From contig JAPPFP010000009.1 in assembly GCA_028877275.1 (NCBI GenBank), positions 354,889 through 418,888 of the forward strand: DNA of 64,000 nt. The letters run 5' to 3'. The stretch's first letter is position 1; every line of letters starts with the position of its first letter. This DNA is from Acidobacteriota bacterium. GTDB taxonomy: Bacteria > Acidobacteriota > Thermoanaerobaculia > Multivoradales > Multivoraceae. Shown piece by piece: positions 3,294 through 53,404 of the stretch. The notes beneath the pieces were generated by a model that saw only the letters and a program-made list of their open reading frames with translations, was not told the origin of the DNA and did no database searches. Made by a program: the position numbers and the translations under genes.

Positions 3294-4943
3294 ATGAACC
3301 GTAGACCGCCTTGTGCTCTCGTGGCCGCGATCGTCGTGGCCGTAGCCGCCTGTGAGGTGTCGGGAGACCCCGGGGCTGAGGGTCCGGGCCTGGTCGTCGA
3401 GACCTCCTACGGGGCGGTCGAGGGCGCGGCCGTCGACGACGGCCGCGGCCCCGCCGGCGACGTGCTCGCCTTCCGCGGCATTCCCTACGCCGTACCGCCG
3501 GTGGGCGACCTGCGCTGGCGGCCTCCGCAGCCGCCGGCATCGTGGGAGGGCGTGCGGCCGGCGCTGGAGTCCGGTGCGCCGTGCTGGCAGCGGATCAGTC
3601 CGGACACGTCCATCTGGAGCCGCGGCGAGCTCGACCGCAGCGAGGACTGCCTCTATCTCGATCTGTGGACGGCGTCCGTCGGCGACGCCGATCCGCGGCC
3701 GGTCATGGTCTGGTTCCACGGCGGCAGCCACGAGGTGGGCCACGGTTCGTCGCTCATCTTCGACGGCGCGGCGCTTGCCCGCAAGGGCGTCGTCCTGGTG
3801 TCGATCAACTACCGGCTCGGGTCCTTCGGGTTCCTGGCACACGCCGGGCTGAGTGCCGAGTCGGAGCACGGGTCTTCCGGCAACTACGGCCTGCTCGACA
3901 AGATCGCCGCACTGCGATGGGTGCGGGACAACGCGGCGGCGTTCGGTGGCGACCCGGCGCGAGTGACCATCTTTGGCCAGTCGGCGGGCTCGATGAGCGT
4001 CTGCAGCCTGGTCGCGTCGCCGCTGGCGACCGGTCTGTTCCATCGCGCGATCGGTCAGTCCGCCGGTTGCTTCACTCCGCTCGAGGGCCTGGAGCAGGCG
4101 GAGCGGCGCGGTGTGCTGCTCGCCGACGAGCTGGGCGTCGCGGCGGATGCCGCCGCCGCTGAGATCGCCGCCGCGATGAGGGCCGCTTCGGCCGAGGACG
4201 TGCTGGGCGCCGCCGGCAGTTCCGGGTGGTCCGACGGTTCGAAGACGGTGGTCGACGGCTGGTACCTGCCGGACCAACCGTCGGCGATCTACGCCCGCGG
4301 CGAGCACAACCGTGTACCGATGATGGTGGGCTTCATGGGCGACGAGTCGCGCGCCCTGTTCGCGCCCGGTCCGCCGCTCGAACGCCCGGCGCTCGAACGG
4401 CAGTTGGAGGAGCAGTACGGGAAGGCGGCCGCCGGGCTCCTGGCCGCCTACGCCGCGGAGGCGGAGAAGGCGCCCGGGGCGGTGCCAAGCCTGATCTTCT
4501 CCGACACGATCTTCGGCTGGGGTAGCCGGACCTGGGTCCGCCACGTCGCGGCCGCCGGCGGCGACGCGTACCTCTACTACATCCCGCACGCGCCGCCCGT
4601 GTTCCGGCTCTACCTGCCGGACCGGCCGGACCTGGGCGGCGAGGGCGGTCCGCGCCGGATGGGCGCCTACCATTCCGGCGATCTGGCCTACGTCTTCGGC
4701 AACACCGATCTGGTGGGCATCGACTGGGAGGACTGGGACCACGAGATCGCCGACCTGCTGTCGAGCTACTGGACGAACTTTGCGAAGACCGGTGACCCGA
4801 ACGGCGAGGGGCTTCCGGAGTGGCCGAGATACCGGTCCGAAACCGATCTGGCGCTCGTTGTGCGCGACACGGTCGGTGTCGAGTCGGGTGTGCTGAGAGA
4901 GAAGCTCGACGCCCTGGACGGAGCGCTGGGCGGAGGCGGATAG
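3294..4943 (+). CDS. Type-B carboxylesterase/lipase (para-nitrobenzyl-esterase-like), lipoprotein
   Basis: GQSAGS nucleophile elbow, HGGS oxyanion-hole motif and RGIPYA... N-terminal block typical of the family. Lipobox AVAAC after MNRRPP. The same GCTGGAAGGAGTT leader as the gene at 1222. Confidence 0.85.
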   Translation: MNRRPPCALVAAIVVAVAACEVSGDPGAEGPGLVVETSYGAVEGAAVDDGRGPAGDVLAFRGIPYAVPPVGDLRWRPPQPPASWEGVRPALESGAPCWQRISPDTSIWSRGELDRSEDCLYLDLWTASVGDADPRPVMVWFHGGSHEVGHGSSLIFDGAALARKGVVLVSINYRLGSFGFLAHAGLSAESEHGSSGNYGLLDKIAALRWVRDNAAAFGGDPARVTIFGQSAGSMSVCSLVASPLATGLFHRAIGQSAGCFTPLEGLEQAERRGVLLADELGVAADAAAAEIAAAMRAASAEDVLGAAGSSGWSDGSKTVVDGWYLPDQPSAIYARGEHNRVPMMVGFMGDESRALFAPGPPLERPALERQLEEQYGKAAAGLLAAYAAEAEKAPGAVPSLIFSDTIFGWGSRTWVRHVAAAGGDAYLYYIPHAPPVFRLYLPDRPDLGGEGGPRRMGAYHSGDLAYVFGNTDLVGIDWEDWDHEIADLLSSYWTNFAKTGDPNGEGLPEWPRYRSETDLALVVRDTVGVESGVLREKLDALDGALGGGG

Positions 4944-4951
4944 CTCGTGCC

Positions 4952-6166
4952 ATGACCGCGATTGCCGAGCCACTGCCGGCGGAAGTCGACGATTTCCGGC
5001 AGCGGGCGCTGGAGTTCGCCGAGCGCGAGGTGCTACCGCGGCACGAGCGGCATGGCGCACTGCTCGACGATCCGCGTGAGCGCTACGACGCCGGCGGGCG
5101 ACTCCAACCGGCCGTCGTCGACCTCATCAGGGAAGTACGCACGGCGTCTGCCCGCGAAGGGATTTTCACCGCGTGCGTACCCGAGGAGCTCGGTGGCGGC
5201 GGCCACGGTCATCTGGCCTACTACGCCGGCTGGCAGGCGCTCTTTCACAGTCTGGGGCCGCGGCCGTGGCTTCTGTTGCACGTCCTGGCGCACTGGGCGT
5301 TCGGTCCCAGCCGGCTGCTGTCGCAGCTTTCCGAGCGGGCGCGCGAGCGCTTCCTGCCGGGGTTGATGGATGGCTCGAAGATCATGTGCTTCGGGCTCTC
5401 GGAGCCGGGTGCCGGCTCCGACCTCTCGGCGCTGGCGACGAGAGCGGAGCGGGATGGTGACGGCTGGCGGATCACCGGCCGGAAGATCTGGACCACGCAC
5501 GGACCCATCGCCGACTACTGCGTGCTCTTTGCGCGCACCGGCGAGCAGGGGATCACCGCCTTCATCGTTCCGACCGAGGCTGACGGCTTCCGGAGGATGC
5601 GCGTGGTCGAACTCTTCGGCGACATCGGCGGCGACGAGGCCGAGATCGCGCTGGAGGGCCTGTACGTAGAGCCCTGGCAGGTCATCGGCGAGGTCGACCG
5701 CGGTCTGGCCGCGGCGCTCTACGGTGTGTCGCTCGGCCGCGTCTACAACTCGGCGCGAGCGGTGGGGACCGGTCGTTGGGCGATCGAGACGGCGCTCGCC
5801 TACGCCCAGAAGCGTGAAGCCTTCGGCTCCCCGATCGCCGAGTACCAGGGAGTCAGCTTTCCCCTGGCCGAGTCCGCAACGGAACTCCATGCTGCCCACC
5901 TGATGGGGCGAAACGCTGCCCGGCTGCTCGATGGCGGCAGCCGCGCGATCAAGGAGCTGAGCATGACGAAGGCCTACTCGGTCCAGGTAGGGCTGCGGGC
6001 CGTCGACCGGGCGATGCAGACCCACGGCGCCCTTGGCTTCACGAACGACCTCGGTCTCACCGAGGCCTGGAAGGCGCTCCGGGTTGTCAACGTCGCCGAC
6101 GGCTCGAACGAGATCATGAACCGGATGATCGCCCGCCAGCTACTCCGGGGCGACACCGATCTCTGA
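4952..6166 (+). CDS. Acyl-CoA dehydrogenase family protein
   Basis: ACAD-like layout: N-terminal helical domain, middle block (GLSEPGAGSD) and C-terminal helical domain. ATG at 4952 lies 8 nt after the upstream stop. Confidence 0.8.
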   Translation: MTAIAEPLPAEVDDFRQRALEFAEREVLPRHERHGALLDDPRERYDAGGRLQPAVVDLIREVRTASAREGIFTACVPEELGGGGHGHLAYYAGWQALFHSLGPRPWLLLHVLAHWAFGPSRLLSQLSERARERFLPGLMDGSKIMCFGLSEPGAGSDLSALATRAERDGDGWRITGRKIWTTHGPIADYCVLFARTGEQGITAFIVPTEADGFRRMRVVELFGDIGGDEAEIALEGLYVEPWQVIGEVDRGLAAALYGVSLGRVYNSARAVGTGRWAIETALAYAQKREAFGSPIAEYQGVSFPLAESATELHAAHLMGRNAARLLDGGSRAIKELSMTKAYSVQVGLRAVDRAMQTHGALGFTNDLGLTEAWKALRVVNVADGSNEIMNRMIARQLLRGDTDL

Positions 6167-39836: not shown

Positions 39837-40979
39837 TCAGGGATGTGCTTCCGGAGCGGCGGCTTCGTCGAAGAGACTTCGCTGGTCCGTGCGCCGCCGG
39901 AAAGCCGACGCGGAGGGGCTGCCGAGCCGCCTGCTCCGACCGCCGTCGAGCCCGACGCGGCGGCGCACCGTCTCGAACAGCCTGCCGATCTGCTCGGCGT
40001 ACTCCCCGCCGCCCTTCATGCGGTGGTGGAAGCGGGGGTCGTTCAGGTTGCCGTCGCGCGCTTCCCGAAGCCGGTTCAGCACCCGGTCGCGGCGGTCGGG
40101 GAAGTGGGTCGCGAGCCAGTTGGAGAAGAGCTCCCGCAGGCCGTGGGGCAGGCGCACCAAGATGTAGCCCGCCCGGTTCGCTCCGGCTTCGGCTGCGGCT
40201 TCCAGGATGGCGGGGATCTGGTCGTCGTTCAGACCCGGGATGATTGGTGCGGCCATCACGCCGCAGGGGATGCCGGCGGCGCTCAGTTCTCGCAGTGCGT
40301 CTAACCGCCGCCGTGGCGTCGAGGCCCGCGGTTCCATTCGCGCCGAGAGCGAGGCGGAGACCGACGTGATCGAGAGGTAGACGCCGCAGGCCTGGAATCG
40401 GTTGAGTTCCAGGAGCAGGTCGAGGTCGCGGGTCACGAGGTGGTTCTTCGTGATGATCGCCACCGGGTTGCGGAACTCGGCGAGGATCTCCAGGCAGCGC
40501 CGGGTGATCTGGAGCTTCCGTTCGATCGGCTGGTAGGGATCGGTGACGCCGGAGAGGACGATGACCTGGGGTTTCCAGCGCGGGTTCAGGAGCGCCTTTC
40601 GCAGCAGTTCCGGCGCACGCTCCTTGACGAGGATCCGGCTCTCGAAGTCCAGCCCGGCGGAGAAGCCGAGGAACTCGTGGGTGGGACGGGCGTAGCAGTA
40701 GATGCAGCCGTGCTCGCAGCCGCGGTAGGGGTTCAGGCTGTACTCGAAGCCGATGTCTGGTGAGTCGTTTCGGGACAGGATGGTCTTCGAGTGATCCCGG
40801 AACAACTCGGTAGAAGGCGAAACGCCGCGCTCGGCGACGCTCTCTCCCGGTTCGAAGTCGATGTCGATCCTCTCGAAGCGGTTGCGGGGGTTGGCGGCTG
40901 TGCCGCGGCCGCGTACCGAGCCCGCGGGCGCCCCAGGGGGTTTCGAGCGGCGGTCGGGGAGACGGTCGGGAGTCTTCAC
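39837..40979 (-). CDS. Radical SAM protein, PA0069 family (SplB-like)
   Basis: NRFERIDIDFE..., LNPYRGCEHGCIYCYA (C-x3-C-x2-C). Confidence 0.8.
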   Translation of the reverse strand: MKTPDRLPDRRSKPPGAPAGSVRGRGTAANPRNRFERIDIDFEPGESVAERGVSPSTELFRDHSKTILSRNDSPDIGFEYSLNPYRGCEHGCIYCYARPTHEFLGFSAGLDFESRILVKERAPELLRKALLNPRWKPQVIVLSGVTDPYQPIERKLQITRRCLEILAEFRNPVAIITKNHLVTRDLDLLLELNRFQACGVYLSITSVSASLSARMEPRASTPRRRLDALRELSAAGIPCGVMAAPIIPGLNDDQIPAILEAAAEAGANRAGYILVRLPHGLRELFSNWLATHFPDRRDRVLNRLREARDGNLNDPRFHHRMKGGGEYAEQIGRLFETVRRRVGLDGGRSRRLGSPSASAFRRRTDQRSLFDEAAAPEAHP

Positions 40980-41044: not shown

Positions 41045-43294
41045 TCAAGCCAGAATCAGCCTCGGGCTGCCGGAAGACGCGGGCCTCGCGCGGGCGATGA
41101 CCGAGGCTGCCTGGAGGCCGTTGTTCCGGAGGGCGCGGACCAGACTGTCGGCGCCCTCCGGAGAGACCGCCGCCACCAGTCCGCCGGCCGTCTGGGGATC
41201 GAAGGCCAGCTCCAGGCGTGGTCCCGCGGCGGCCAGGCGCTCGACCTCGACCGGCAGCCGGGTGTTCTGATCGTGGCTCGTGCTGCGCTCGCCGCGGCCC
41301 AGCAGTTCGATCGCGCCGGGAAGCGCGGGCAGGGCGTCGACATAGACCTCGAGGTCCACGCCGCTCGCCTGCGCCATCTCGCCCAGGTGACCGGCGAGGC
41401 CGAAACCGCTCACGTCGGTCGCAGCGGTTACGCCGGCTCGTCTGGCCGCTTCCATCGCGCCACGGTTGCTGGTCTGCATCGAGGCGAGGCAGGCCCGCAG
41501 CCAGCGACCGGGACAGAGCCCCATCCTGTCGGCGGCGAGCAGGACGCCGGAGCCCAGTGGCTTGGTCAGGACCAGGGCGTCGCCGGGCCGGACCCGCCTC
41601 TTGAGCAGCAGGTCATGGCCGTCTTCCGACACGCCCTCGACGTGGAAGCCGACGACCAGTTCAGGCCCGGTGTTCGTGTGGCCGCCGAGGAGCCGGACAC
41701 CTTCCGGCTCAAGCGCCGCGCGGGCGCCTGCGAGGACCTGGGCCAGGAGCTCCTCGGCGGTTGCGCCGGCGGCAGCCTGCGGCAGAGTGACCAGAGCCTG
41801 GGCAAACCGGGGCGTCACCCCGGTGGCGTGGAGATCGGAGCAGGCGTTCACGGCAGCTACGCGGCCCACGAGCCAGGGGTCGTCGGTGAAGGCGGGGAAG
41901 GCGTCCAGAGAAGCCACGATGCGATCCCCGGCCGGCGTCCGGTAGGCCACCGCATCGTCCGGCGTCCGAGTGTCCAGAATGATCTGGTCCGGGAGGATCT
42001 GGTCGCCGGTCTCCGGCCGAGCGTGCAGACCCGCGCGCGCCAGGGCCCTGCCCAGCCGGTCGGGTCCTACTTTCGCCGCGCAACCGCCGCAGTACATGGG
42101 GACCGGCTGAGGCACGTCGTTCACCCCGTGCGTTTCGGGACCTGCCGTCATGACGCCGAACGCGGGCAGCGCCGCGCCGTCCGGAGCGAGGGCCTGGAAG
42201 CGTTCCATGAACCGGCGGTCGATCCGGTCCTTGAGCCGCATGACCCAGCGACCTTCGAAGGCGGCGCCCCACTTGGCGCCGGCGGCCCGGCCGTCGCCGA
42301 GATTGAGCAGAGCCAGGAAGTCGCCCTGCGGCCGGTACCGGAGGAGTCGCTGTCCCGACTGCAGGCGCTCCAGGTTCTCGATCAGGTAGGGCCCCATGCG
42401 CACCGCGTAGACGCCTGCCCGAGGGCGATTCGGCTGGTCGGTCAGGGTCGCGCAGTCGCCGACGGCGAAGATGTGGTCGTGGCCCTCCACCTGCAGAGTG
42501 GGCCGGGTGCGTGCGAAGCCACGATCGCAGAGGGGCAGGTCGGAACCCCGGAAGATCGGCAACGCGGCGGCGCCGGTTACCCAGAAGGTCAGGTCCGAGT
42601 CGAGGCTCTTGCCGTCTTCGAGCCGCACGCCGTGCTCCTCGACGGCGACGACGGCCGTATCGACCAGGGTGCGGAGGTCGCGCTCGCGTGCCGCCGCCTC
42701 GATGCGCCGCGCCAGTGCCGGGTGGTAGCCGGGCAGGATGTGGTGGCCGGCCTCGACGATCGTGACCCGGGGTTCCAGGTCCAGACCGCGCAGCCGGGCG
42801 TCGATGCAGAACGCGAGTTCGATGCCGCCCGCGCCGCTGCCGACGACGACCACGTTCGGCTGCCGGCTGGTCAGGCCCTCGAGACGGCCGGAGATCGCGG
42901 CCGCCAGCCGGTTGATCGGCCGCGTGGGAACCGCGTGCTCGCGCACGCCGGGCAGCTCGAGCCCGGCCACTGTCGACCCAACGTCGAAAGAGGCGACGTC
43001 GAACGGGAGTGGCTCCCGGCCCTCGACCAGAACGCGCCGGTCCGCCGCTTCGACGCCGGTGCAGGGCGCGAGCACCACGCGGACTCCCGCCCGGCGCGCA
43101 AGCGGCACCGCGTCGATCTCCAGTTCATGCCGTTCGTACTGTCCGGCGACGAGTCCGGGCGCCATGCCGGAGTAGACGGCGATGGGCGTGTCGACGACGA
43201 GGGTCGCCTCGATCGCCGGATCCGGGTGCATCATCCAGTGGCGCAGGACCTGGATGTGGGTGTGCCCGGCGCCGACCAGGACAACCTGCGGCAT
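41045..43294 (-). CDS. selD: Fusion protein: FAD/NAD(P)-binding pyridine-nucleotide-disulfide oxidoreductase domain plus selenide, water dikinase (SelD)
   Basis: N-terminus VVLVGAGHTHIQ (FAD Rossmann) and a second GxGxxG (VVVVGSGAGGIE). The C-terminal roughly 350 aa is SelD-like: MYCGGCAAKVGP (Cys-containing glycine-rich N-terminal loop) and TDVSGFGLAGHLGEMA (AIR-synthase-like). Start is coupled to the CaiB stop (TGATG). Confidence 0.8.
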   Translation of the reverse strand: MPQVVLVGAGHTHIQVLRHWMMHPDPAIEATLVVDTPIAVYSGMAPGLVAGQYERHELEIDAVPLARRAGVRVVLAPCTGVEAADRRVLVEGREPLPFDVASFDVGSTVAGLELPGVREHAVPTRPINRLAAAISGRLEGLTSRQPNVVVVGSGAGGIELAFCIDARLRGLDLEPRVTIVEAGHHILPGYHPALARRIEAAARERDLRTLVDTAVVAVEEHGVRLEDGKSLDSDLTFWVTGAAALPIFRGSDLPLCDRGFARTRPTLQVEGHDHIFAVGDCATLTDQPNRPRAGVYAVRMGPYLIENLERLQSGQRLLRYRPQGDFLALLNLGDGRAAGAKWGAAFEGRWVMRLKDRIDRRFMERFQALAPDGAALPAFGVMTAGPETHGVNDVPQPVPMYCGGCAAKVGPDRLGRALARAGLHARPETGDQILPDQIILDTRTPDDAVAYRTPAGDRIVASLDAFPAFTDDPWLVGRVAAVNACSDLHATGVTPRFAQALVTLPQAAAGATAEELLAQVLAGARAALEPEGVRLLGGHTNTGPELVVGFHVEGVSEDGHDLLLKRRVRPGDALVLTKPLGSGVLLAADRMGLCPGRWLRACLASMQTSNRGAMEAARRAGVTAATDVSGFGLAGHLGEMAQASGVDLEVYVDALPALPGAIELLGRGERSTSHDQNTRLPVEVERLAAAGPRLELAFDPQTAGGLVAAVSPEGADSLVRALRNNGLQAASVIARARPASSGSPRLILA

Positions 43295-46629: not shown

Positions 46630-47199
46630 CTAGGCGCCCGCCCCCGCTTCCAGGCCCGTCACGTCGTACGACATGAGGATCAGGTCGTGCGTGGCGTCGT
46701 TCGGGTCGATGACCCAGTCGGCCAGCAGGGCCTCCACCGAGAAGCCCAGGTTCTGGAACATCTGACGGGCGCCGCGCTGCTCCCGGGCCATCTGGGCGAT
46801 GATCTTGGTCAGCCCGATCTGCTGGGCCAGGTGGAACACGTCGTGCGCCAGTTGGCCGCCGAGGCCGACCTGGCGGACCTCGGGCAGGACCATGATCCTG
46901 ATCTCGCCCAGGTGCCTCATCCAGGCCGACTCCCGCCGGTTCAGGCTGCCGTAGCCGACGACACGATCGCCGAGATGAGCGAGCACCGCGACGCGGGTTC
47001 CGGCCATCGCGCCTTCGACCCAGTTGTCGACGACCTTCGGATCCGTCATGTCGACGCGCAGGAATCGGAGGTCCTCTTCCGGCAGCGCCCGGGCAAAGGC
47101 GAGCACGTCATCGCGGTCTTCCTGCCTCAGAAGGCTGAACTGGAAGGACTGGTTCTCGAGGCGGACCGTCCGCGGGTACTGGGTCGCCATGTCGTTCAC
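46630..47199 (-). CDS. GNAT family N-acetyltransferase
   Basis: GNAT motif A region (VRQVGLGGQL...). GTG start overlaps the upstream stop (GTGA). Confidence 0.8.
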   Translation of the reverse strand: MNDMATQYPRTVRLENQSFQFSLLRQEDRDDVLAFARALPEEDLRFLRVDMTDPKVVDNWVEGAMAGTRVAVLAHLGDRVVGYGSLNRRESAWMRHLGEIRIMVLPEVRQVGLGGQLAHDVFHLAQQIGLTKIIAQMAREQRGARQMFQNLGFSVEALLADWVIDPNDATHDLILMSYDVTGLEAGAGA

Positions 47200-47564
47200 T
47201 CGGCTGTCTCCTCTTGGACTTGGGGCGTGGGTGGGGCCTGGTCGGTTGCCTCGTCGGTGGCGGAGCCGTCGGCGAGGCGATCGAGGTAGGTAGTGACGGC
47301 ATCGAAGGATCCGTCGATCGTGTTCTTGAACTGGCGCTGGCCTTCCTGTGCGGCGCCCCGCCAGGTCTGGATCAGATCACGTGCCTCCTCGGGGAGGTTC
47401 GGGACCTGGTTCATCATCCGGTCGGCGAGTTCGAGCTGACGGTCCTGGAGGGCGACGATCGCGTCGTAGCCGTTCTCGAAAGCGGCCCTCTGGAACTCGA
47501 GGACCTGCCTCTGGAAGGCAAGCACCTGTCTTGGGATGTTGCTCGGAATGTTGGCTCGGGTCAT
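47196..47564 (-). CDS. Phasin-like (granule/lipid-body-associated) small protein
   Basis: 122 aa, amphipathic helical. LAFQRQVLEFQRAAFENGYDAIVALQDRQLELADRMMNQ is reminiscent of phasin_2-type repeats. ATGA coupling on both sides. Confidence 0.5.
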   Translation of the reverse strand: MTRANIPSNIPRQVLAFQRQVLEFQRAAFENGYDAIVALQDRQLELADRMMNQVPNLPEEARDLIQTWRGAAQEGQRQFKNTIDGSFDAVTTYLDRLADGSATDEATDQAPPTPQVQEETAE

Positions 47565-48949
47565 GGTGTCTCCAGGTTGTGGAACTGCCGCGGTTTGGAC
47601 GGGGCCGGAACACTGCGCCGCCGTCGTCGGGGAGCGCGACCTGCCGCTTCGCGAAGTTCGTCGAACGACTCCGCGAGCAGGTCGGGCAGCACTTCGGCGT
47701 CGGGACAGGCTCGTTCGTCCACCGTGACGCCGACGTGCAGCGCCTGGTTGTAGGCGAAGAACGCGCAGGAGAGGCCCTGGCCGTAACCGATAGGCCAGGA
47801 GGGCGTGTAGCCGGAAAGCGGCCGGCCGGCCAGGAACTGGGGGATCTGGGGACCGTTCGCGTTGGCGACGGTCAGATGGAACGGCGGCCGCAACGAAGAG
47901 GTCATCGCGGTCGCGGCGGCCGCCAGCGGGCCGGCGGCGCCCTGCACGCCGGCGAAGCGCGACAGCACGTCCGCCACCCGCGCCGTCCGCATCAGGCGCG
48001 CGAGCTGGTGCACCGTACGGAGCCGGTCCGCTGCGCCGACGCTCAGGGGAACTTCGATGGGCAGCAGGCTTCGTCGTTTCCGATCGCGTTCGGGGAGGTC
48101 GGTGGCCAGAGCCACGCGCAGACTTCGGCCTCTGGTCGAGACGCCTCTCAGGTCCAGATAGCGTTCGAGTGCGCCGCCGGCCAGGGCGACGACCACATCC
48201 GAGAGCGCGCCGCCCAGCCGGGCCCGGATCAGCCGGATGTCGCGGTAGGAGAAGGCGCACCGAATCAGGCGGCGCCGTCCCCCCAGCTTTCGGTTGAACG
48301 GCATGGGCACCGGCGGCAGTGCGAGATCGGGCATCGTTTCGTTCAGGGTCAGGAGCGCGGTCCGCGTGTCTTCCGAGGTGAGTTCCTGGAGGCCCGCGGC
48401 CAGATGCTGGCCAATCAGTGTCCAGTTCTGGAGCCACTCCGCCCCGCGAGCGCCGCATCGGGCGCCGTTCGACGCCGGTTCGCCGGCCTTCTTCTCCTCG
48501 ACCGTCGTACCGCTCGCAAACAGCGCGTGGAAGAGGTCGCCGGTGCCCAGTCCGTCGACGGCGACCAGGTGGGATTTGACCAGCAGAGCGTCGCCGCCGT
48601 CGTGGTAGCCGGGCGCCAGATGGAACTCCCACAGCGGCCGGCGGGGATCGAGCGGCTTGCCGAGGGCTTCGTCGAACGCGGAAGCAGGGTCGCCGTTCGC
48701 GACGACGTGCAGGTGCTTGTCGAGTTCGAACGGCGCCGGGCGCCAGCGCGGAGGGCCATAGGGCGGTCCGTCGACACGGAGGCTGAACCGCGGCAGCCTG
48801 CGCAGCCGACCCATCCAGTGCAGGAGTTCCTGCCGGTCGATCTCGCCATCGACGAGCGCCAGACCCGCGACGTGCAGTCCGGGGCCGCGGCGCTCGAGGT
48901 TCCACAGGACCGCCTGGTCGGGCGTCAGGAGGGTGTTGGGAGCGGTCAC
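47561..48949 (-). CDS. Wax ester synthase/diacylglycerol acyltransferase (WS/DGAT) paralogue with a variant active-site motif
   Basis: WS/DGAT-like length and blocks. The H-H-x-x-x-D-G motif appears as SHLVAVDG. ATGA-coupled to the upstream hydrolase gene. Confidence 0.75.
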   Translation of the reverse strand: MTAPNTLLTPDQAVLWNLERRGPGLHVAGLALVDGEIDRQELLHWMGRLRRLPRFSLRVDGPPYGPPRWRPAPFELDKHLHVVANGDPASAFDEALGKPLDPRRPLWEFHLAPGYHDGGDALLVKSHLVAVDGLGTGDLFHALFASGTTVEEKKAGEPASNGARCGARGAEWLQNWTLIGQHLAAGLQELTSEDTRTALLTLNETMPDLALPPVPMPFNRKLGGRRRLIRCAFSYRDIRLIRARLGGALSDVVVALAGGALERYLDLRGVSTRGRSLRVALATDLPERDRKRRSLLPIEVPLSVGAADRLRTVHQLARLMRTARVADVLSRFAGVQGAAGPLAAAATAMTSSLRPPFHLTVANANGPQIPQFLAGRPLSGYTPSWPIGYGQGLSCAFFAYNQALHVGVTVDERACPDAEVLPDLLAESFDELREAAGRAPRRRRRSVPAPSKPRQFHNLETP

Positions 48950-49770
48950 GTGGCCGTCTCCGCGGTGAGCGCGGGACTCGGGTGGCGCTTCAGGAACCGT
49001 GCGAGATGCCAGTACGCGAGGGCGTTGGCGGCCAGGCCGGAATGGGTGCCGAGGACCTCCCGATTCAGCGACGGGTCGTGTAGCCGCGTGTAGCGCCAGG
49101 CGACGACGCCGTCCCGCCGGGTGAAGATGGCGAGCTGCGGCACCTCTTCCGGAAACGGGCTCTGCACCGAGCGGACCAGGTCGCAGCGGCAGTCACCCGA
49201 GAAGCAGGCGGGTTCCCGGGCGCCGTCCCGTTCGACGACGCGGCGGCGTACCGCCTCCGCCAGCCGCATCACCATGGGATGGGAGCGGACGCCCCGGATC
49301 GGTGAGCCCATCGTGGTGACGGACGCGACCAGATCGGGACGCAGGCTCGTTACACCGCGCGAGAGCATGCCGCCCAGGCTGTGGCCGACCAGGTGCGCGC
49401 GCCGGCCGGTCTCGTCCGCGGCCTTCTGGAGCGTTCCGATCAGCCGGTTGCCCAGCCGGTCGAGACAGTCGGCGTTCTGCCCGATGGCCGAACGGTAGGG
49501 GCGGTAGCCGATGCGGCCAAGCCAGCGGCGCATCGGCGCCAGGTAGCCGTCGGTTCCGGTGAAGCCGGGAACGACGATCACCGCGGCGCCGTCGCCGCGC
49601 GGCACGCCCATGCCGTGGTAGATGGGCGTGAACGGCAGGAAGGCAAACTCGGCGGCCGCGAACGGCTCGCGCCAAAGCGGCAGCGCCGCCGGCACCGAAT
49701 CCCGCAGGAGACGCGGGTTCGCGCTCCAGATCGGGCTGGCCTGACGCCCCCGCCGGGCCGACGCCGTCAC
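48946..49770 (-). CDS. Alpha/beta-hydrolase lipase/esterase (GHSLGG)
   Basis: VIVVPGFTG..., nucleophile elbow GHSLGG. GTG start overlaps the WS/DGAT stop (TAGTG). The ORF-track 5' extension is rejected. Confidence 0.7.
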   Translation of the reverse strand: MTASARRGRQASPIWSANPRLLRDSVPAALPLWREPFAAAEFAFLPFTPIYHGMGVPRGDGAAVIVVPGFTGTDGYLAPMRRWLGRIGYRPYRSAIGQNADCLDRLGNRLIGTLQKAADETGRRAHLVGHSLGGMLSRGVTSLRPDLVASVTTMGSPIRGVRSHPMVMRLAEAVRRRVVERDGAREPACFSGDCRCDLVRSVQSPFPEEVPQLAIFTRRDGVVAWRYTRLHDPSLNREVLGTHSGLAANALAYWHLARFLKRHPSPALTAETAT

Positions 49771-51284
49771 TAGGCGACTCCTCGCAGGGACGCGTCGGAA
49801 TGGGAGTCGGTCGCGGCGGCCTCTTCGGCCTGCGGCAGATCGACCTGGGGTGACGCTGCCGCGAAGCAGCGCGCGCCGCTCGGCTCCTCGCTCTCCACCC
49901 CGGCCGCCTCCCGGAGTTCGGCGTACGACTCCTCCAGGCACTGGGCGAGGAACCACGCGTCGGGGATGAGCTTGGCGTCCACCGTCACTCCCAGGGTGAT
50001 GCGCTGGTTGTAGCTCAGGATGGCGACGAACAGGCCGATGTTGTTCGAAACGATGCCGAGTGGTAGCCAGTCGACCAGCTTGTGGGGTCCGAAGTACAGC
50101 GGAATCATCGGCCCGGGCACGTTGGTCGAGACGGTGTTGAACAGGGTCTGGGAGAAGGGCATCGTCGCGGCGACGGCAGCCATGAGCGGCGGGACCCGGT
50201 CGCTGAACTGGGTCATCTGGTAAAAGGCCTTCGCCTGCCCGGCCTCCTTCAGCTTGTTCATCGCGTCCCGTTCCCTGCCGAGGCGTTCGACCGGGTCGTC
50301 GACCCCGACGAAGAGCGGAGCGATCATGTTCGAGACGAGATTCCCGAGCTGACCCCGTTCGTCCTGCTGGCGCATGCTGACCGGGCACATGGCGCGCAGC
50401 TCGAGTCCCTTCGGGTCCTGGCCGCGCTCACGCAGGTAGCGACCGATGCCGCCGGCGAGCACGGTGAGCACGACGTCGTTGACGGTGCCGCTCAGGGCGG
50501 ACTTGACGGCGCGCAGTTCGGGGAAGGAGAACTGGGCCCATGCGAACCCCCGCTCCTTGCTGACCGGTCGATTGAAGACGGTGCGCGGCGCAGGAGCGGC
50601 GGAGACCGGCAGGGTCGCGGCGCTGGCCGCCACCATCTCGCGTACGCGGTCCGCCATCTGGCGAGGGCGCGCGGCGTCGAAGGCGGCGTTCGTCCAGGAC
50701 TCGTTCAGTTGTCCGAGGCGATGCTGCATCGCTTCCTGGAGGAGGCTCAGAGAGTCCGGCAGCGGCTTCGGCGCCCAGGGCTCGGCGGGTGCGTCCGGCA
50801 GTTCCTCGGTGGGTGAGAAGTCGCTCAGCACCATCGACAGGTCGACGCCGGAGACGCCGTCGACCATCGCGTGGTGGATCTTCCAGACGACCGCCGTGTG
50901 TCCCGGGATGCCGCGGAGCAGAATCCCCTTCCAGAGCGGCCGGTTGCGGTCGAGCATGCCGCCGTAGGCCTCGGCGGCGGCGCGGGCCAGTACCTGGTGG
51001 TCGCTGTCCTCAGGGATCCAGACCTCCTCGACGTGGTTCTCCAGGTTGAAGGACGGGTCATCGACCCACACCGGGTGGGAGACGAGGAAGGGCGGGAACA
51101 GCACGCGCTGGCGGTAGCGGGGCAGCAGGTGCATGCGGGCGGCAAGCTGTTCGACCATGTACTCGCGCGAGAACTCGCCTTCGTAGACCATGCAGCCGCC
51201 GATGTGCATCGTCTCGTGGGGGCGTTCGACATAGAGGAAGGCGGCGTCGAGCGGGGTCAGGAATCGGTTCAGTTCCGTGGCCAT
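49770..51284 (-). CDS. Wax ester synthase/diacylglycerol acyltransferase (WS/DGAT)
   Basis: Canonical HHAMVDGVSG active-site motif and WS/DGAT N-terminal block LTPLDAAFLYVE. Confidence 0.85.
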   Translation of the reverse strand: MATELNRFLTPLDAAFLYVERPHETMHIGGCMVYEGEFSREYMVEQLAARMHLLPRYRQRVLFPPFLVSHPVWVDDPSFNLENHVEEVWIPEDSDHQVLARAAAEAYGGMLDRNRPLWKGILLRGIPGHTAVVWKIHHAMVDGVSGVDLSMVLSDFSPTEELPDAPAEPWAPKPLPDSLSLLQEAMQHRLGQLNESWTNAAFDAARPRQMADRVREMVAASAATLPVSAAPAPRTVFNRPVSKERGFAWAQFSFPELRAVKSALSGTVNDVVLTVLAGGIGRYLRERGQDPKGLELRAMCPVSMRQQDERGQLGNLVSNMIAPLFVGVDDPVERLGRERDAMNKLKEAGQAKAFYQMTQFSDRVPPLMAAVAATMPFSQTLFNTVSTNVPGPMIPLYFGPHKLVDWLPLGIVSNNIGLFVAILSYNQRITLGVTVDAKLIPDAWFLAQCLEESYAELREAAGVESEEPSGARCFAAASPQVDLPQAEEAAATDSHSDASLRGVA

Positions 51285-51397
51285 TTTGGGGTCTCCAGAA
51301 CGGGCGGATCGCGTATGGGTAGGGGTTTATGCTGCGCTGCTTGCTGCAACGCAGCAGAAGCCTCGCACAGAAACGGGCGATTGGCAAGGGTTGGCCC

Positions 51398-53404
51398 CTA
51401 GGCCGGTCGCCGCCACCGGAACACGGCTACGTCGATGACCTCCCGCGCCGGCTCGACCAGGATCCGTATCGGTGACTGCGGCACGTCGAAACGCTGCGTT
51501 AGACAGCGGCGCCGTTCCCTGCCTCTCTGGGTGTGGCGGCAGGGCAGCGGATTGCCATCGACTTCAATGGAGATCTCCACCGCGTCGCGTGAGGGACTGC
51601 GGACTGCGATCTCCAGCGACACGAGGCCAGGGCCTGCTGCGGGTGCGTCGGTCCCTGCTGGCAGCGCCGCCGGATCGACTTCGTAGAGTCCCTCGCCCGT
51701 ACGGGAGAAGGCGGTGGGCGCGGGTGGTCCCAGCGCCTCGAAGGGTCGGCGCACGAGGACGACGGGATCTCCGCGCAGCCGGAACAGCTTCGGATCGAAA
51801 CGCTGAACGGTCACACCCGGCTGAGCCGCGGCCAACTCCCGGTAGGCGGAGTCCTGGTCGGGTTCAAGCCGCGAAGCCGGGAAGAGCAGGATGTCGGCCG
51901 CCTCCCGCTCCGACCGGGACTCGGCGGCGATGCTGTCCGCGCGGATGAGTGTGGTTACGTAGTTCCCGTTCCAGATCCGGGGGTCGAAGTCCTGGATCCC
52001 GAGCGGCAGTTCGGTCATGAACGTCCGTCCCCTGAGCGGCTTCGGCCTCCCGGCCGTTCGGGCGGCCTCCGCCGAAGTCAGCGGGACGTTCTCTTCGTAC
52101 ACCGCGGTGTGGACGAAGCGGGCCTTGTCGAGTCCGGCCAGTCCGGCGCCGGCAGCCAGGACGGCCAGGGAGACGATCGTCCACCGGCGTTGCGGCAGGC
52201 CGCGGGCTGCGCGCACCAGCTTGCCGAGGAACCAGGCGCCGGCCAGGGCGACCACCGGAGCGACGATCAGCCAGTTGGGCGGCTTCGGATACCGGGTGAC
52301 GACCCACAGGGAGGCGACGTAGCCGCCGAAGAAGACGCCCAGGACGAGCGCGTCGGCAACCGTGGCGCCGCCCCGTTCGCCCGGCAGCCGCCCCCGGACA
52401 TCGCGCCGGGCCCGCAGCGCGAGAACGAGCATCCAGCCCAGGCCGAGGAGCCCGCAGGCGCCCAGCACGGGGCTGAAGTAGACGCTGCCTGCGAGGCTCG
52501 TCACCGCGTTCAGCGGCTGGTCGAAGAGCCCGGCGCCTACTTCGGCGAGTCGCTCCCGGTAGTGGCTCACGGTCGACCCGAGATGGCGCCGGTACATCTC
52601 GGGTGCCAGCACCAGCCAGGGATTGAGCAGGAGCAGCACGCCGGCGCCGCCGGCGGCCGCGGCCGCGGTACGGCGGACCAGCAGACCGATGTCGCGGACG
52701 CCGCCCAGGGCGATCGCAACGAGCAGCGGTAGCGCCAGCGCCGCGCCGTTCCACTTGGCGGCGGCGGTTGCGCCGACCATGGCGCCGGCGATCGCGTACC
52801 CTCGGAGACTCTCGCTTCGCCGCGCGGCGAGGATCGCGTAGAGGGTCAGGACGGCAGTCAGGACCAGCATGATGTCGGGCTTGAACACGCCCGACTGGCG
52901 CATGTGCCAGGGGGCGACGGCGAGCAGGAAGGCCGCGCCCAGACCGACCCAGGGGCCGAACAGCCGCCGGCCGATCACGAACACGACGAACAGCGAGGCG
53001 GTGCCCAGCAGCGTCTGGATGATCCGGGAGACGCGCACGGCGATCCGGGTGAGATAGGGCCGTCCGTCCGGTGCGATCCCGAACGTCGTCGGCAGGGAGG
53101 AGAGCCAGGGCAGGGAGCGGGCCGTTTCGTATGCCTTGAGGGCCGCCGCGTGGGGCAGGTAGGAGAGCGTCGGGTAGTGCGTGCGCACCGGTCGCCACTG
53201 GTCGTGGGCCAGGACCGCGGCGACGTTGCCGGCGTTGTAGCGCTCGTCCCAGAGCCGGTTCATCGTCGGGTCCGGCCAACTGAAGAGCACGCGGACCGCA
53301 AGCGCCCACAGGAGCAGCAACCCGAGCAGCCACTTCTGCAGGCTCGTCGTCCGGAGCGGCGTCCCTTCCGGGTCCAGATGACTCCCCGGCTCTACCGCGC
53401 TCAT
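51398..53404 (-). CDS. GT39/GT83-like (PMT/ArnT-type) polyprenyl-phosphate-sugar-dependent glycosyltransferase, integral membrane
   Basis: Multi-TM N-terminal region with the ArnT/PMT-like loop pattern and a large C-terminal periplasmic domain. Confidence 0.7.
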   Translation of the reverse strand: MSAVEPGSHLDPEGTPLRTTSLQKWLLGLLLLWALAVRVLFSWPDPTMNRLWDERYNAGNVAAVLAHDQWRPVRTHYPTLSYLPHAAALKAYETARSLPWLSSLPTTFGIAPDGRPYLTRIAVRVSRIIQTLLGTASLFVVFVIGRRLFGPWVGLGAAFLLAVAPWHMRQSGVFKPDIMLVLTAVLTLYAILAARRSESLRGYAIAGAMVGATAAAKWNGAALALPLLVAIALGGVRDIGLLVRRTAAAAAGGAGVLLLLNPWLVLAPEMYRRHLGSTVSHYRERLAEVGAGLFDQPLNAVTSLAGSVYFSPVLGACGLLGLGWMLVLALRARRDVRGRLPGERGGATVADALVLGVFFGGYVASLWVVTRYPKPPNWLIVAPVVALAGAWFLGKLVRAARGLPQRRWTIVSLAVLAAGAGLAGLDKARFVHTAVYEENVPLTSAEAARTAGRPKPLRGRTFMTELPLGIQDFDPRIWNGNYVTTLIRADSIAAESRSEREAADILLFPASRLEPDQDSAYRELAAAQPGVTVQRFDPKLFRLRGDPVVLVRRPFEALGPPAPTAFSRTGEGLYEVDPAALPAGTDAPAAGPGLVSLEIAVRSPSRDAVEISIEVDGNPLPCRHTQRGRERRRCLTQRFDVPQSPIRILVEPAREVIDVAVFRWRRPA

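Follow-up and report, generated by a model that had tools for sequence, protein, structure and literature searches.

The five-gene block

The window analysed here is a 64,000-nucleotide stretch of an Acidobacteriota genome (contig JAPPFP010000009.1, positions 354,889 to 418,888), and its subject is a cluster of five genes, A to E, that we propose to serve neutral-lipid storage. Read directly from the sequence, the region 46630-51284 consists of five consecutive open reading frames (ORFs) on the minus strand in DNA of approximately 69% G+C, as an earlier first-pass annotation of the window had stated. The genes and the gap upstream of them are as follows, where WS/DGAT stands for wax ester synthase/diacylglycerol acyltransferase.

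49770-51284, minus strand: gene A, 504 amino acids, canonical WS/DGAT
48946-49770, minus strand: gene B, 274 amino acids, GTG start, cytoplasmic alpha/beta hydrolase of the lipase/esterase type
47561-48949, minus strand: gene C, 462 amino acids, GTG start, divergent WS/DGAT paralogue, probable pseudo-acyltransferase
47196-47564, minus strand: gene D, 122 amino acids, ATG start, predicted two-helix hairpin with a disordered acidic tail, uncurated phasin-like family
46630-47199, minus strand: gene E, 189 amino acids, GTG start (alternative ATG at 47190), GNAT acetyltransferase
51285-51397, minus strand: gap of 113 nucleotides 5' of A, likely operon start

Each gene overlaps the next, by one nucleotide at the A/B junction (TAGTG, 49772-49768) and through GTGA at B/C (48949-48946), ATGA at C/D (47564-47561) and GTGA at D/E (47199-47196). 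Three of these junctions had been described correctly (TAGTG at 49770, ATGA at 47564 and GTGA at 47199); at 48949, where ATGA had been given, the sequence reads GTGA.

A hypothetical protein of an Acidobacteriota metagenome-assembled genome (MAG) matches the D protein with 100% identity, and when one genome of each GTDB species was scanned, D was located in 39 species, all of them MAGs labelled Ca. Multivorans, Multivoraceae, Thermoanaerobaculia or with older names (lineage Acidobacteriota; Thermoanaerobaculia; Ca. Multivoradales). When the five window proteins were used in tblastn searches, the order A-B-C-D-E was found to be kept in 36 of 39 species-level loci from Ca. Multivoraceae and relatives. 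Gene C has been lost from three Ca. Multivorans species (L027, L032 and L034), in which A-B and D-E are retained with approximately 240-420 nucleotides between B and D; this paralogue, which lacks a catalytic histidine (see below), is therefore dispensable in some lineages. The B-C overlap of 4 nucleotides persists in 33 of 34 loci, and the GTGA shared by D and E in 38 of 40. Purifying selection acts on all five genes: the ratios of non-synonymous to synonymous substitution rates (dN/dS, Nei-Gojobori) are 0.07-0.37, with the strongest constraint on E and the weakest on C and D. The coupled unit that the first-pass annotation had suggested thus holds in gene order, in overlaps and in selection.

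The encoded proteins

The product of gene A matches both WS/DGAT domains, PF03007 (163 bits, E=1.4e-47) and PF06974 (111 bits, E=5.8e-32), and scores 385.6 bits against the subfamily model TIGR02946, over its cutoff of 309.95 bits. The catalytic motif HHxxxDG is present as KIHHAMVDG, with HHAMVDG at 50856-50876, and reads HHAM[VI]DG in 38 of 39 orthologues. In both domains, in HHxxxDG and in PLW and NDxxL/PGP-type motifs A resembles the WS/DGAT enzymes AtfA of Acinetobacter baylyi and the Marinobacter enzyme of PDB entry 6CHJ. Judged by the subfamily cutoff and the catalytic motif, A is a bona fide WS/DGAT, as had been proposed.

Gene C has the same two-domain fold signature as AtfA and 6CHJ (PF03007, 71 bits; PF06974, 58.7 bits) and matches 6CHJ over its full length (E=9.7e-13), but at 186.9 bits it falls under the TIGR02946 cutoff and it evolves faster than A. 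In alignments to A-type enzymes and to 6CHJ, the segment K-S-H127-L128-V-A-V-D-G of C (SHLVAVDG, 48551-48574) lies opposite K-I-H-H-A-M-V-D-G, so that the first histidine of HHxxxDG is retained and the second is replaced by Leu128. In the superfamily of chloramphenicol acetyltransferase and condensation domains the second histidine is the general base. WS/DGAT catalysis reportedly requires both histidines (Stoveken et al. 2009, cited in PMC10549239 and PMC5407786). All Multivorans-type C orthologues read xHLxxxDG, and because the second histidine is replaced by leucine in every one of them, C is probably a non-catalytic pseudoenzyme. In two sister lineages, the C-type gene directly upstream of D has Arg in place of the second histidine and has also lost the Asp-Gly, reading KVHRALRPQ (L046) and KIHRALAPD (L044). 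C is the fastest-evolving gene of the operon, yet its dN/dS is 0.15-0.37, and this purifying selection suggests that a non-catalytic role has been retained. The second WS/DGAT with a variant motif that had been noted is therefore right as to family and motif but not as a simple second synthase.

The product of gene B matches Abhydrolase_1 (27 bits) and carries the GHSLGG elbow (49369-49386). Its best phmmer matches in the PDB are family-I lipases of Burkholderia cepacia/glumae and Pseudomonas aeruginosa (E=3e-11), over residues 64-162 only, which comprise the oxyanion region and the elbow. S131, D220 and H243 are invariant among 39 B homologues and are proposed as the catalytic triad. The structure predicted by AlphaFold2 (AF2) is an alpha/beta hydrolase fold with a predicted local distance difference test score (pLDDT) of 82; in Foldseek, a Streptomyces lipase and P. 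aeruginosa LipA stand near the top, with E=1e-6 to lipases and esterases and a template modelling (TM) score of only ~0.5, and strigolactone-receptor and esterase folds score equally well. The B family has at least 1617 members, labelled 'esterase/lipase' or 'triacylglycerol lipase' in their sources, with no characterised member, and a hydrolase 45% identical to B adjoins a WS/DGAT gene in a Hydrogenedentota contig. Compared with the true lipases of families I.1 and I.2 (Burkholderia and P. aeruginosa LipA), B shares the GHSxGG elbow and oxyanion segment and the DGxV...H arrangement of Asp and His; it is shorter (274 versus ~320 amino acids), has no signal peptide in its sequence and no Lif partner, and its C-terminal half cannot be aligned. 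The description of B as an alpha/beta-hydrolase lipase is thus justified at the level of a Ser-Asp-His lipase-type hydrolase, apparently closest to family-I lipases. Four cysteines that set B apart from those lipases (C102, C189, C194 and C196, the last three in a Cx4CxC cluster, ACFSGDCRC) are also invariant in the 39 homologues and may form a metal site or disulfides in this protein without a signal peptide.

Gene D encodes a small protein for which AF2, run with 31 orthologues, gives a model (pLDDT 79.5) with long helices at residues 12-53 and 59-105, followed by a disordered tail that is acidic. Helix 2 is strongly amphipathic (hydrophobic moment z=4.4) and helix 1 less so (z=1.6). A profile search of 1.84 billion cluster representatives returned at least 470 relatives at E<=1e-3, counted as 50%-cluster representatives, of 85-220 amino acids and with a conserved core of F29, Q40, P58 and W68. 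Two D-type domains occur in 47 of 231 relatives, to which the Joint Genome Institute gives the labels 'gas vesicle protein' or 'anti-sigma28 factor'; one subfamily of ~160 amino acids (L047, from Smithella sp. SDB, and P0182-P0217) carries two tandem D-type hairpins per polypeptide. The single curated model approached by D was WXG100, and a WXG100/ESAT-6 type VII substrate was rejected: D scores 17.5 bits where the Pfam threshold is 27.3 and 16.7 bits where that of NCBIfam is 44.85, W68 is part of helix 2 and not of the inter-helix turn, and the residue that follows it varies (G, D, N or S).

The genomic context of the D family links it to WS/DGAT genes outside the Multivoraceae clade as well. 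For every one of the closest non-clade relatives of D, the gene immediately before it encodes a WS/DGAT, and an E-type GNAT gene follows wherever the contig extends far enough (L044, L046, L134 and L135); in L046 the order is WS/DGAT-hydrolase-SDR-hydrolase-WS/DGAT-D-GNAT, SDR being a short-chain dehydrogenase/reductase. K-tailed relatives in L050 (Hydrogenedentota) and L052 adjoin a canonical, convergently transcribed WS/DGAT gene, and L050 also has a B-like hydrolase and an LRAT-family protein. Six loci outside the clade thus join the D family to WS/DGAT, four of them directly downstream and two adjacent and convergent.

A second context is polyhydroxyalkanoate (PHA) storage. In a metagenome scan that was seeded with the K-tailed D subfamily only and gave 74 loci, many on short contigs, so that fractions are not unbiased, 35 loci had one to six tandem D-like genes (83-113 amino acids) starting 109-522 bp from a divergent phaR, and in 40 of the 74 the D-like array was followed by a gene for a 500-530-amino-acid protein with a GYCQGG box. 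The phaR product in L087 matches PF07879 with 91.5 bits, and the same locus has a thiolase and a hydrolase with PHB_depo_C and DUF3141 domains. The 500-530-amino-acid proteins consistently resemble class-III PhaC, albeit below threshold (TIGR01836, E=4e-6 and 5e-8). A hidden Markov model (HMM) built from 64 non-redundant phaR-adjacent proteins alone matched the D protein of the window at E=1.4e-17, and hhalign aligned D with these proteins at a probability of 99.0% over 82 columns (E=2.6e-18); D is therefore a true homologue of proteins encoded in the position of phasin genes. It is these homologues, and not D itself, that lie next to phaR and a PhaC-like gene, and the window holds no phaR. 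The best reading of the homology and context is that D belongs to a new phasin-like family, members of which take the phasin position, between phaR and a PhaC-like gene, in other phyla. Two proteins encoded beside D-family genes are recorded in their own right. The 500-530-amino-acid protein (L087:7661-9205, L051:2231-3823 and homologues in 40 of the loci L052-L125) has a Cys 'lipase box' and no Pfam match at E<=1e-3, and possibly represents a divergent, uncurated class of PHA synthase. In L136, a bacterial homologue of LMF1, the lipase maturation factor of eukaryotes (PF06762/PF25179, 2710-4155), is encoded directly upstream of a K-tailed D-family gene (4385-4960).

The product of gene E is a GNAT acetyltransferase (PF00583, E=2.3e-9), as had been annotated, whose best PDB match is an uncharacterised acetyltransferase (E=3e-6) and which has no close characterised relative. 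It is the most conserved gene of the operon, with 78-97% identity and dN/dS of 0.07-0.19. E orthologues directly follow D-family genes in L044 and L046, where they are 57% identical to E, and in L048 and L049, where identity is 39-42%; conserved blocks are shared along the whole length. E-type GNAT genes adjoin D-family genes also in L052, L054, L057 and L134, making at least eight loci outside the clade. An E-like GNAT gene lies beside the thiolase gene in several PHA clusters, including that of L087. By this linkage E is a conserved partner of D across phyla and not an incidental fifth gene, which corrects the place that the first-pass annotation had given it.

Boundaries and flanking genes

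In relatives the usual upstream flank is an Aminotran_4 gene, and the downstream flank is either amidohydrolase and CoA-transferase genes or a PIN/MazE pair with CRISPR-Cas. As the flanks vary while the five-gene block is constant, the block begins at A and ends at E. A sigma-70 consensus search of the 113-nucleotide gap upstream of A (51285-51397) gave 0 sites, and a scan for promoters and terminators gave no signal above shuffle expectation. The next gene upstream in the window is the following.

51398-53404, minus strand: PMT_2/STT3-like membrane glycosyltransferase, 668 amino acids, which in most relatives separates the operon from the Aminotran_4 gene

The PMT_2-like gene is missing from that position in six loci (L001, L004, L022, L023, L033 and L040) and is therefore a lineage-specific insertion. 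In one relative (L003/L004, 8978-16342) the operon is followed by the PIN/MazE pair and CRISPR-Cas genes (Cas2, a Cas4-Cas1 fusion and Cas_GSU0053), where the window instead has the amidohydrolase and CoA-transferase genes. Further along the minus strand of the window, 41045-43294 encodes a 749-amino-acid fusion of pyridine-nucleotide-disulphide oxidoreductase and AIR-synthase-related (SelD/HypE-like) domains, adjoined by a radical SAM gene at 39837-40979 (minus strand); the pair is also found downstream in L001. One 211-amino-acid protein of an ENA assembly (P0033) combines pieces of D, of the C-type WS/DGAT and of the PMT_2-like protein; it is a chimera, evidently from a gene call spliced across the operon, and not a true fusion.

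A proposed neutral-lipid inclusion module and its relation to known systems

We propose, with a probability of roughly 0.6, that the five genes form one operon for cytoplasmic neutral-lipid inclusions (wax ester and/or triacylglycerol, TAG) with a coat protein from the new phasin-like family. A would be the acyl-CoA-dependent WS/DGAT that makes the neutral lipid, and B would most likely mobilise or remodel the stored esters by hydrolysis. C would most likely act at the inclusion surface without catalysis, as a scaffold, a regulator or a partner that binds lipid, acyl-CoA or A. The amphipathic two-helix hairpin of D would coat the nascent lipid body, and E may modify D or another surface component with acetyl-CoA or acyl-CoA and so tune the inclusion surface.

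A number of results weigh against this proposal. D has no Pfam or NCBIfam match above threshold, and none of the curated phasin profiles (PF09361/TIGR01841, PF05597/TIGR01837 and PF09602/TIGR02131) matched it at E<=10 in Pfam or E<=1 in NCBIfam. Among 97 D-family members the Pfam matches to phasins were weak and scattered, with no consistent family (Phasin_2 two, PF05597 one and PhaP_Bmeg one), and those in NCBIfam were one each to TIGR01837 and phaP_Bmeg. The D family was compared by hhalign with a TIGR01841-type phasin alignment, made from eight annotated plasmid phasins and PhaP1 (validated by tblastn to annotated phasins); the probability was 2.1%, a comparison that concerns this phasin type and not PF05597 or PhaP_Bmeg, and 0.4% against the single PhaP1 sequence. 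These profile searches place D in no curated phasin family, so the phasin-like protein of the first-pass annotation stands on remote homology to phaR-adjacent proteins and on genomic context, and not on a curated match. Foldseek of the D model against the PDB returned only generic helical hairpins (best E=1.1), and the D-family profile matched no PDB sequence. All 31 Multivorans-type D proteins have acidic tails, unlike most of their relatives. No lysine of D is strictly conserved (the K80 column has K in 63 of 97 sequences and R in 20), and there is therefore no evident defined acetyl-lysine site for E. D-E pairs in L048 and L049 have no WS/DGAT or PHA genes within 6-7 kb. Counts from the 74 metagenome loci carry the bias of their seed, and within ~10 kb of the operon there is no gene for a fatty acyl-CoA reductase, for the Kennedy pathway or for other lipid functions, so that no neighbour points to the acyl acceptor.

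The pairs in L048 and L049 also bear on the best-surviving alternative, which is that D and E are an independent module of a nucleoid- or nucleic-acid-associated helical protein and its acetyltransferase, comparable to a histone-like protein with its acetylase, which only shares the transcript with the lipid genes and in which D is not a coat. Histone-H1-like models (Pfam HC2 and NCBIfam) match the K/A/P-rich tails of many D relatives; basic C-tails occur in 85 of 231 relatives and basic N-extensions in 58. However, K/A/P-rich basic tails are also the architecture of PhaF, PhaM, HBHA and TadA, of which PhaF and PhaM tether inclusions, and such tails are hence no argument against a coat role. 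Moreover, basic tails are missing from the short members linked to phaR and from all 31 Multivorans-type proteins, the latter being acidic, and both the D-like arrays between phaR and the PhaC-like gene in 35 loci and the six WS/DGAT-linked loci outside the clade speak against a nucleoid function. We regard this explanation as improbable.

Another possibility is that what the operon makes or remodels is not a storage lipid but an acylated lipid or metabolite of a specialised kind, for example a cell-envelope or host-interaction lipid of a sponge symbiont. A would then esterify a dedicated alcohol, B would be a thioesterase or transacylase and E an N-acyltransferase. WS/DGAT-family enzymes are promiscuous, and the absence of a nearby reductase or Kennedy-pathway gene would be in keeping with such a role; upstream neighbours in relatives include genes for a sulfotransferase, a PhyH dioxygenase, an aminotransferase and the PMT_2-like glycosyltransferase, and the block of L046 contains the extra SDR and second hydrolase. 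Yet the five-gene block is constant while these flanking genes vary, A passes the WS/DGAT subfamily cutoff, the family of D is tied to PHA storage loci and E-type GNATs also occur in PHA clusters, and we consider a specialised lipid quite improbable.

Two further explanations are far weaker. That D assists B as a helper or chaperone, in the manner of the Lif foldases of family I.1/I.2 lipases, is very unlikely: the N-terminal half of B resembles those lipases, D is predicted to be all-helical and one D relative adjoins the LMF1 homologue, but C separates D from B, dozens of D-family loci lack any B homologue, D has no similarity to Lipase_chap (PF03280), Lif is three times as large as D, and B lacks a signal peptide. 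Least probable of all is a GNAT-type toxin-antitoxin pair (TacAT/AtaRT-like), with D as the small upstream antitoxin overlapping a ~190-amino-acid acetyltransferase toxin by 4 nucleotides, given that D is predicted to be all-helical with no match to ribbon-helix-helix (RHH) or DUF1778 models, that PADLOC gave no match, that E, more conserved than any other of the five genes, is inherited vertically at a fixed locus in 39 species, and that the tandem D-like arrays by phaR have no adjacent GNAT gene. On Pfam, PADLOC and context, both of these candidates were rejected, as was anti-phage defence. None of the alternatives fits the context data as well as the inclusion module.

If the inclusion module is taken further, D could represent a widespread class of coat protein common to PHA granules and wax-ester/TAG bodies, E an acetyl-CoA-sensing switch between storage and mobilisation, and the dead enzyme C a structural or regulatory subunit, which together would amount to lipid-droplet machinery outside the Actinobacteria; we offer this extension as speculative and on balance unlikely. 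The enzymes behind bacterial wax-ester and TAG bodies have been studied in depth; to our knowledge, dedicated coat proteins of such bodies have been described in no more than a few Actinobacteria, and no such protein has a genetic link to WS/DGAT. With at least 470 clusters at 50% identity, a candidate coat family that is missing from Pfam and NCBIfam and links PHA with neutral-lipid storage is of interest, and the conserved pseudo-WS/DGAT and the partner acetyltransferase are further leads. The locus suggests neutral-lipid storage in a dominant lineage of sponge symbionts, a point of relevance to carbon flow in the holobiont, and the compact five-gene block could serve lipid-body engineering.

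The D family resembles the PHA-granule phasins (PhaP of the Phasin_2/TIGR01841 type, PhaF/PhaI of PF05597/TIGR01837, PhaP_Bmeg and PhaM) in being small, amphipathic and all-helical, in having genes, often in tandem, between phaR and a PhaC-like gene and, in many relatives, in K/A/P-rich tails like those of PhaF and PhaM. It differs in the lack of similarity to curated phasin models, in the simple two-helix hairpin predicted for D, in the acidic tail and dedicated GNAT partner, and in that the gene follows WS/DGAT and not PHA synthase in this clade and its nearest relatives. With the actinobacterial lipid-droplet proteins (TadA/HBHA-type and MLDS) D shares the proposed structural role in TAG/wax-ester bodies, and the basic tails of its relatives resemble the Lys-rich C-termini of those proteins; there is no detectable homology (in Pfam at E<=10 only the sub-threshold WXG100 match appeared) and the phylum is different. 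We know of no case in which the actinobacterial proteins are encoded in a translationally coupled operon with WS/DGAT.

In a survey of sediment metagenomes, WS/DGAT genes adjoin genes for alpha/beta hydrolases or putative lipases, and one scaffold has a putative phasin (PMC10351704); no five-gene block, pseudo-WS/DGAT, D-family protein or GNAT partner is described there. Our literature search found nothing on the Multivorans operon, on wax-ester synthases of sponge Acidobacteria or on phasin-GNAT pairs. WS/DGAT-hydrolase neighbourhoods are therefore already known (PMC10351704), whereas the fixed five-gene block, the conserved histidine-less WS/DGAT paralogue, the cross-phylum GNAT partner and a candidate coat-protein family that connects PHA loci with WS/DGAT loci and has no entry in Pfam or NCBIfam appear to be new to the literature searched.

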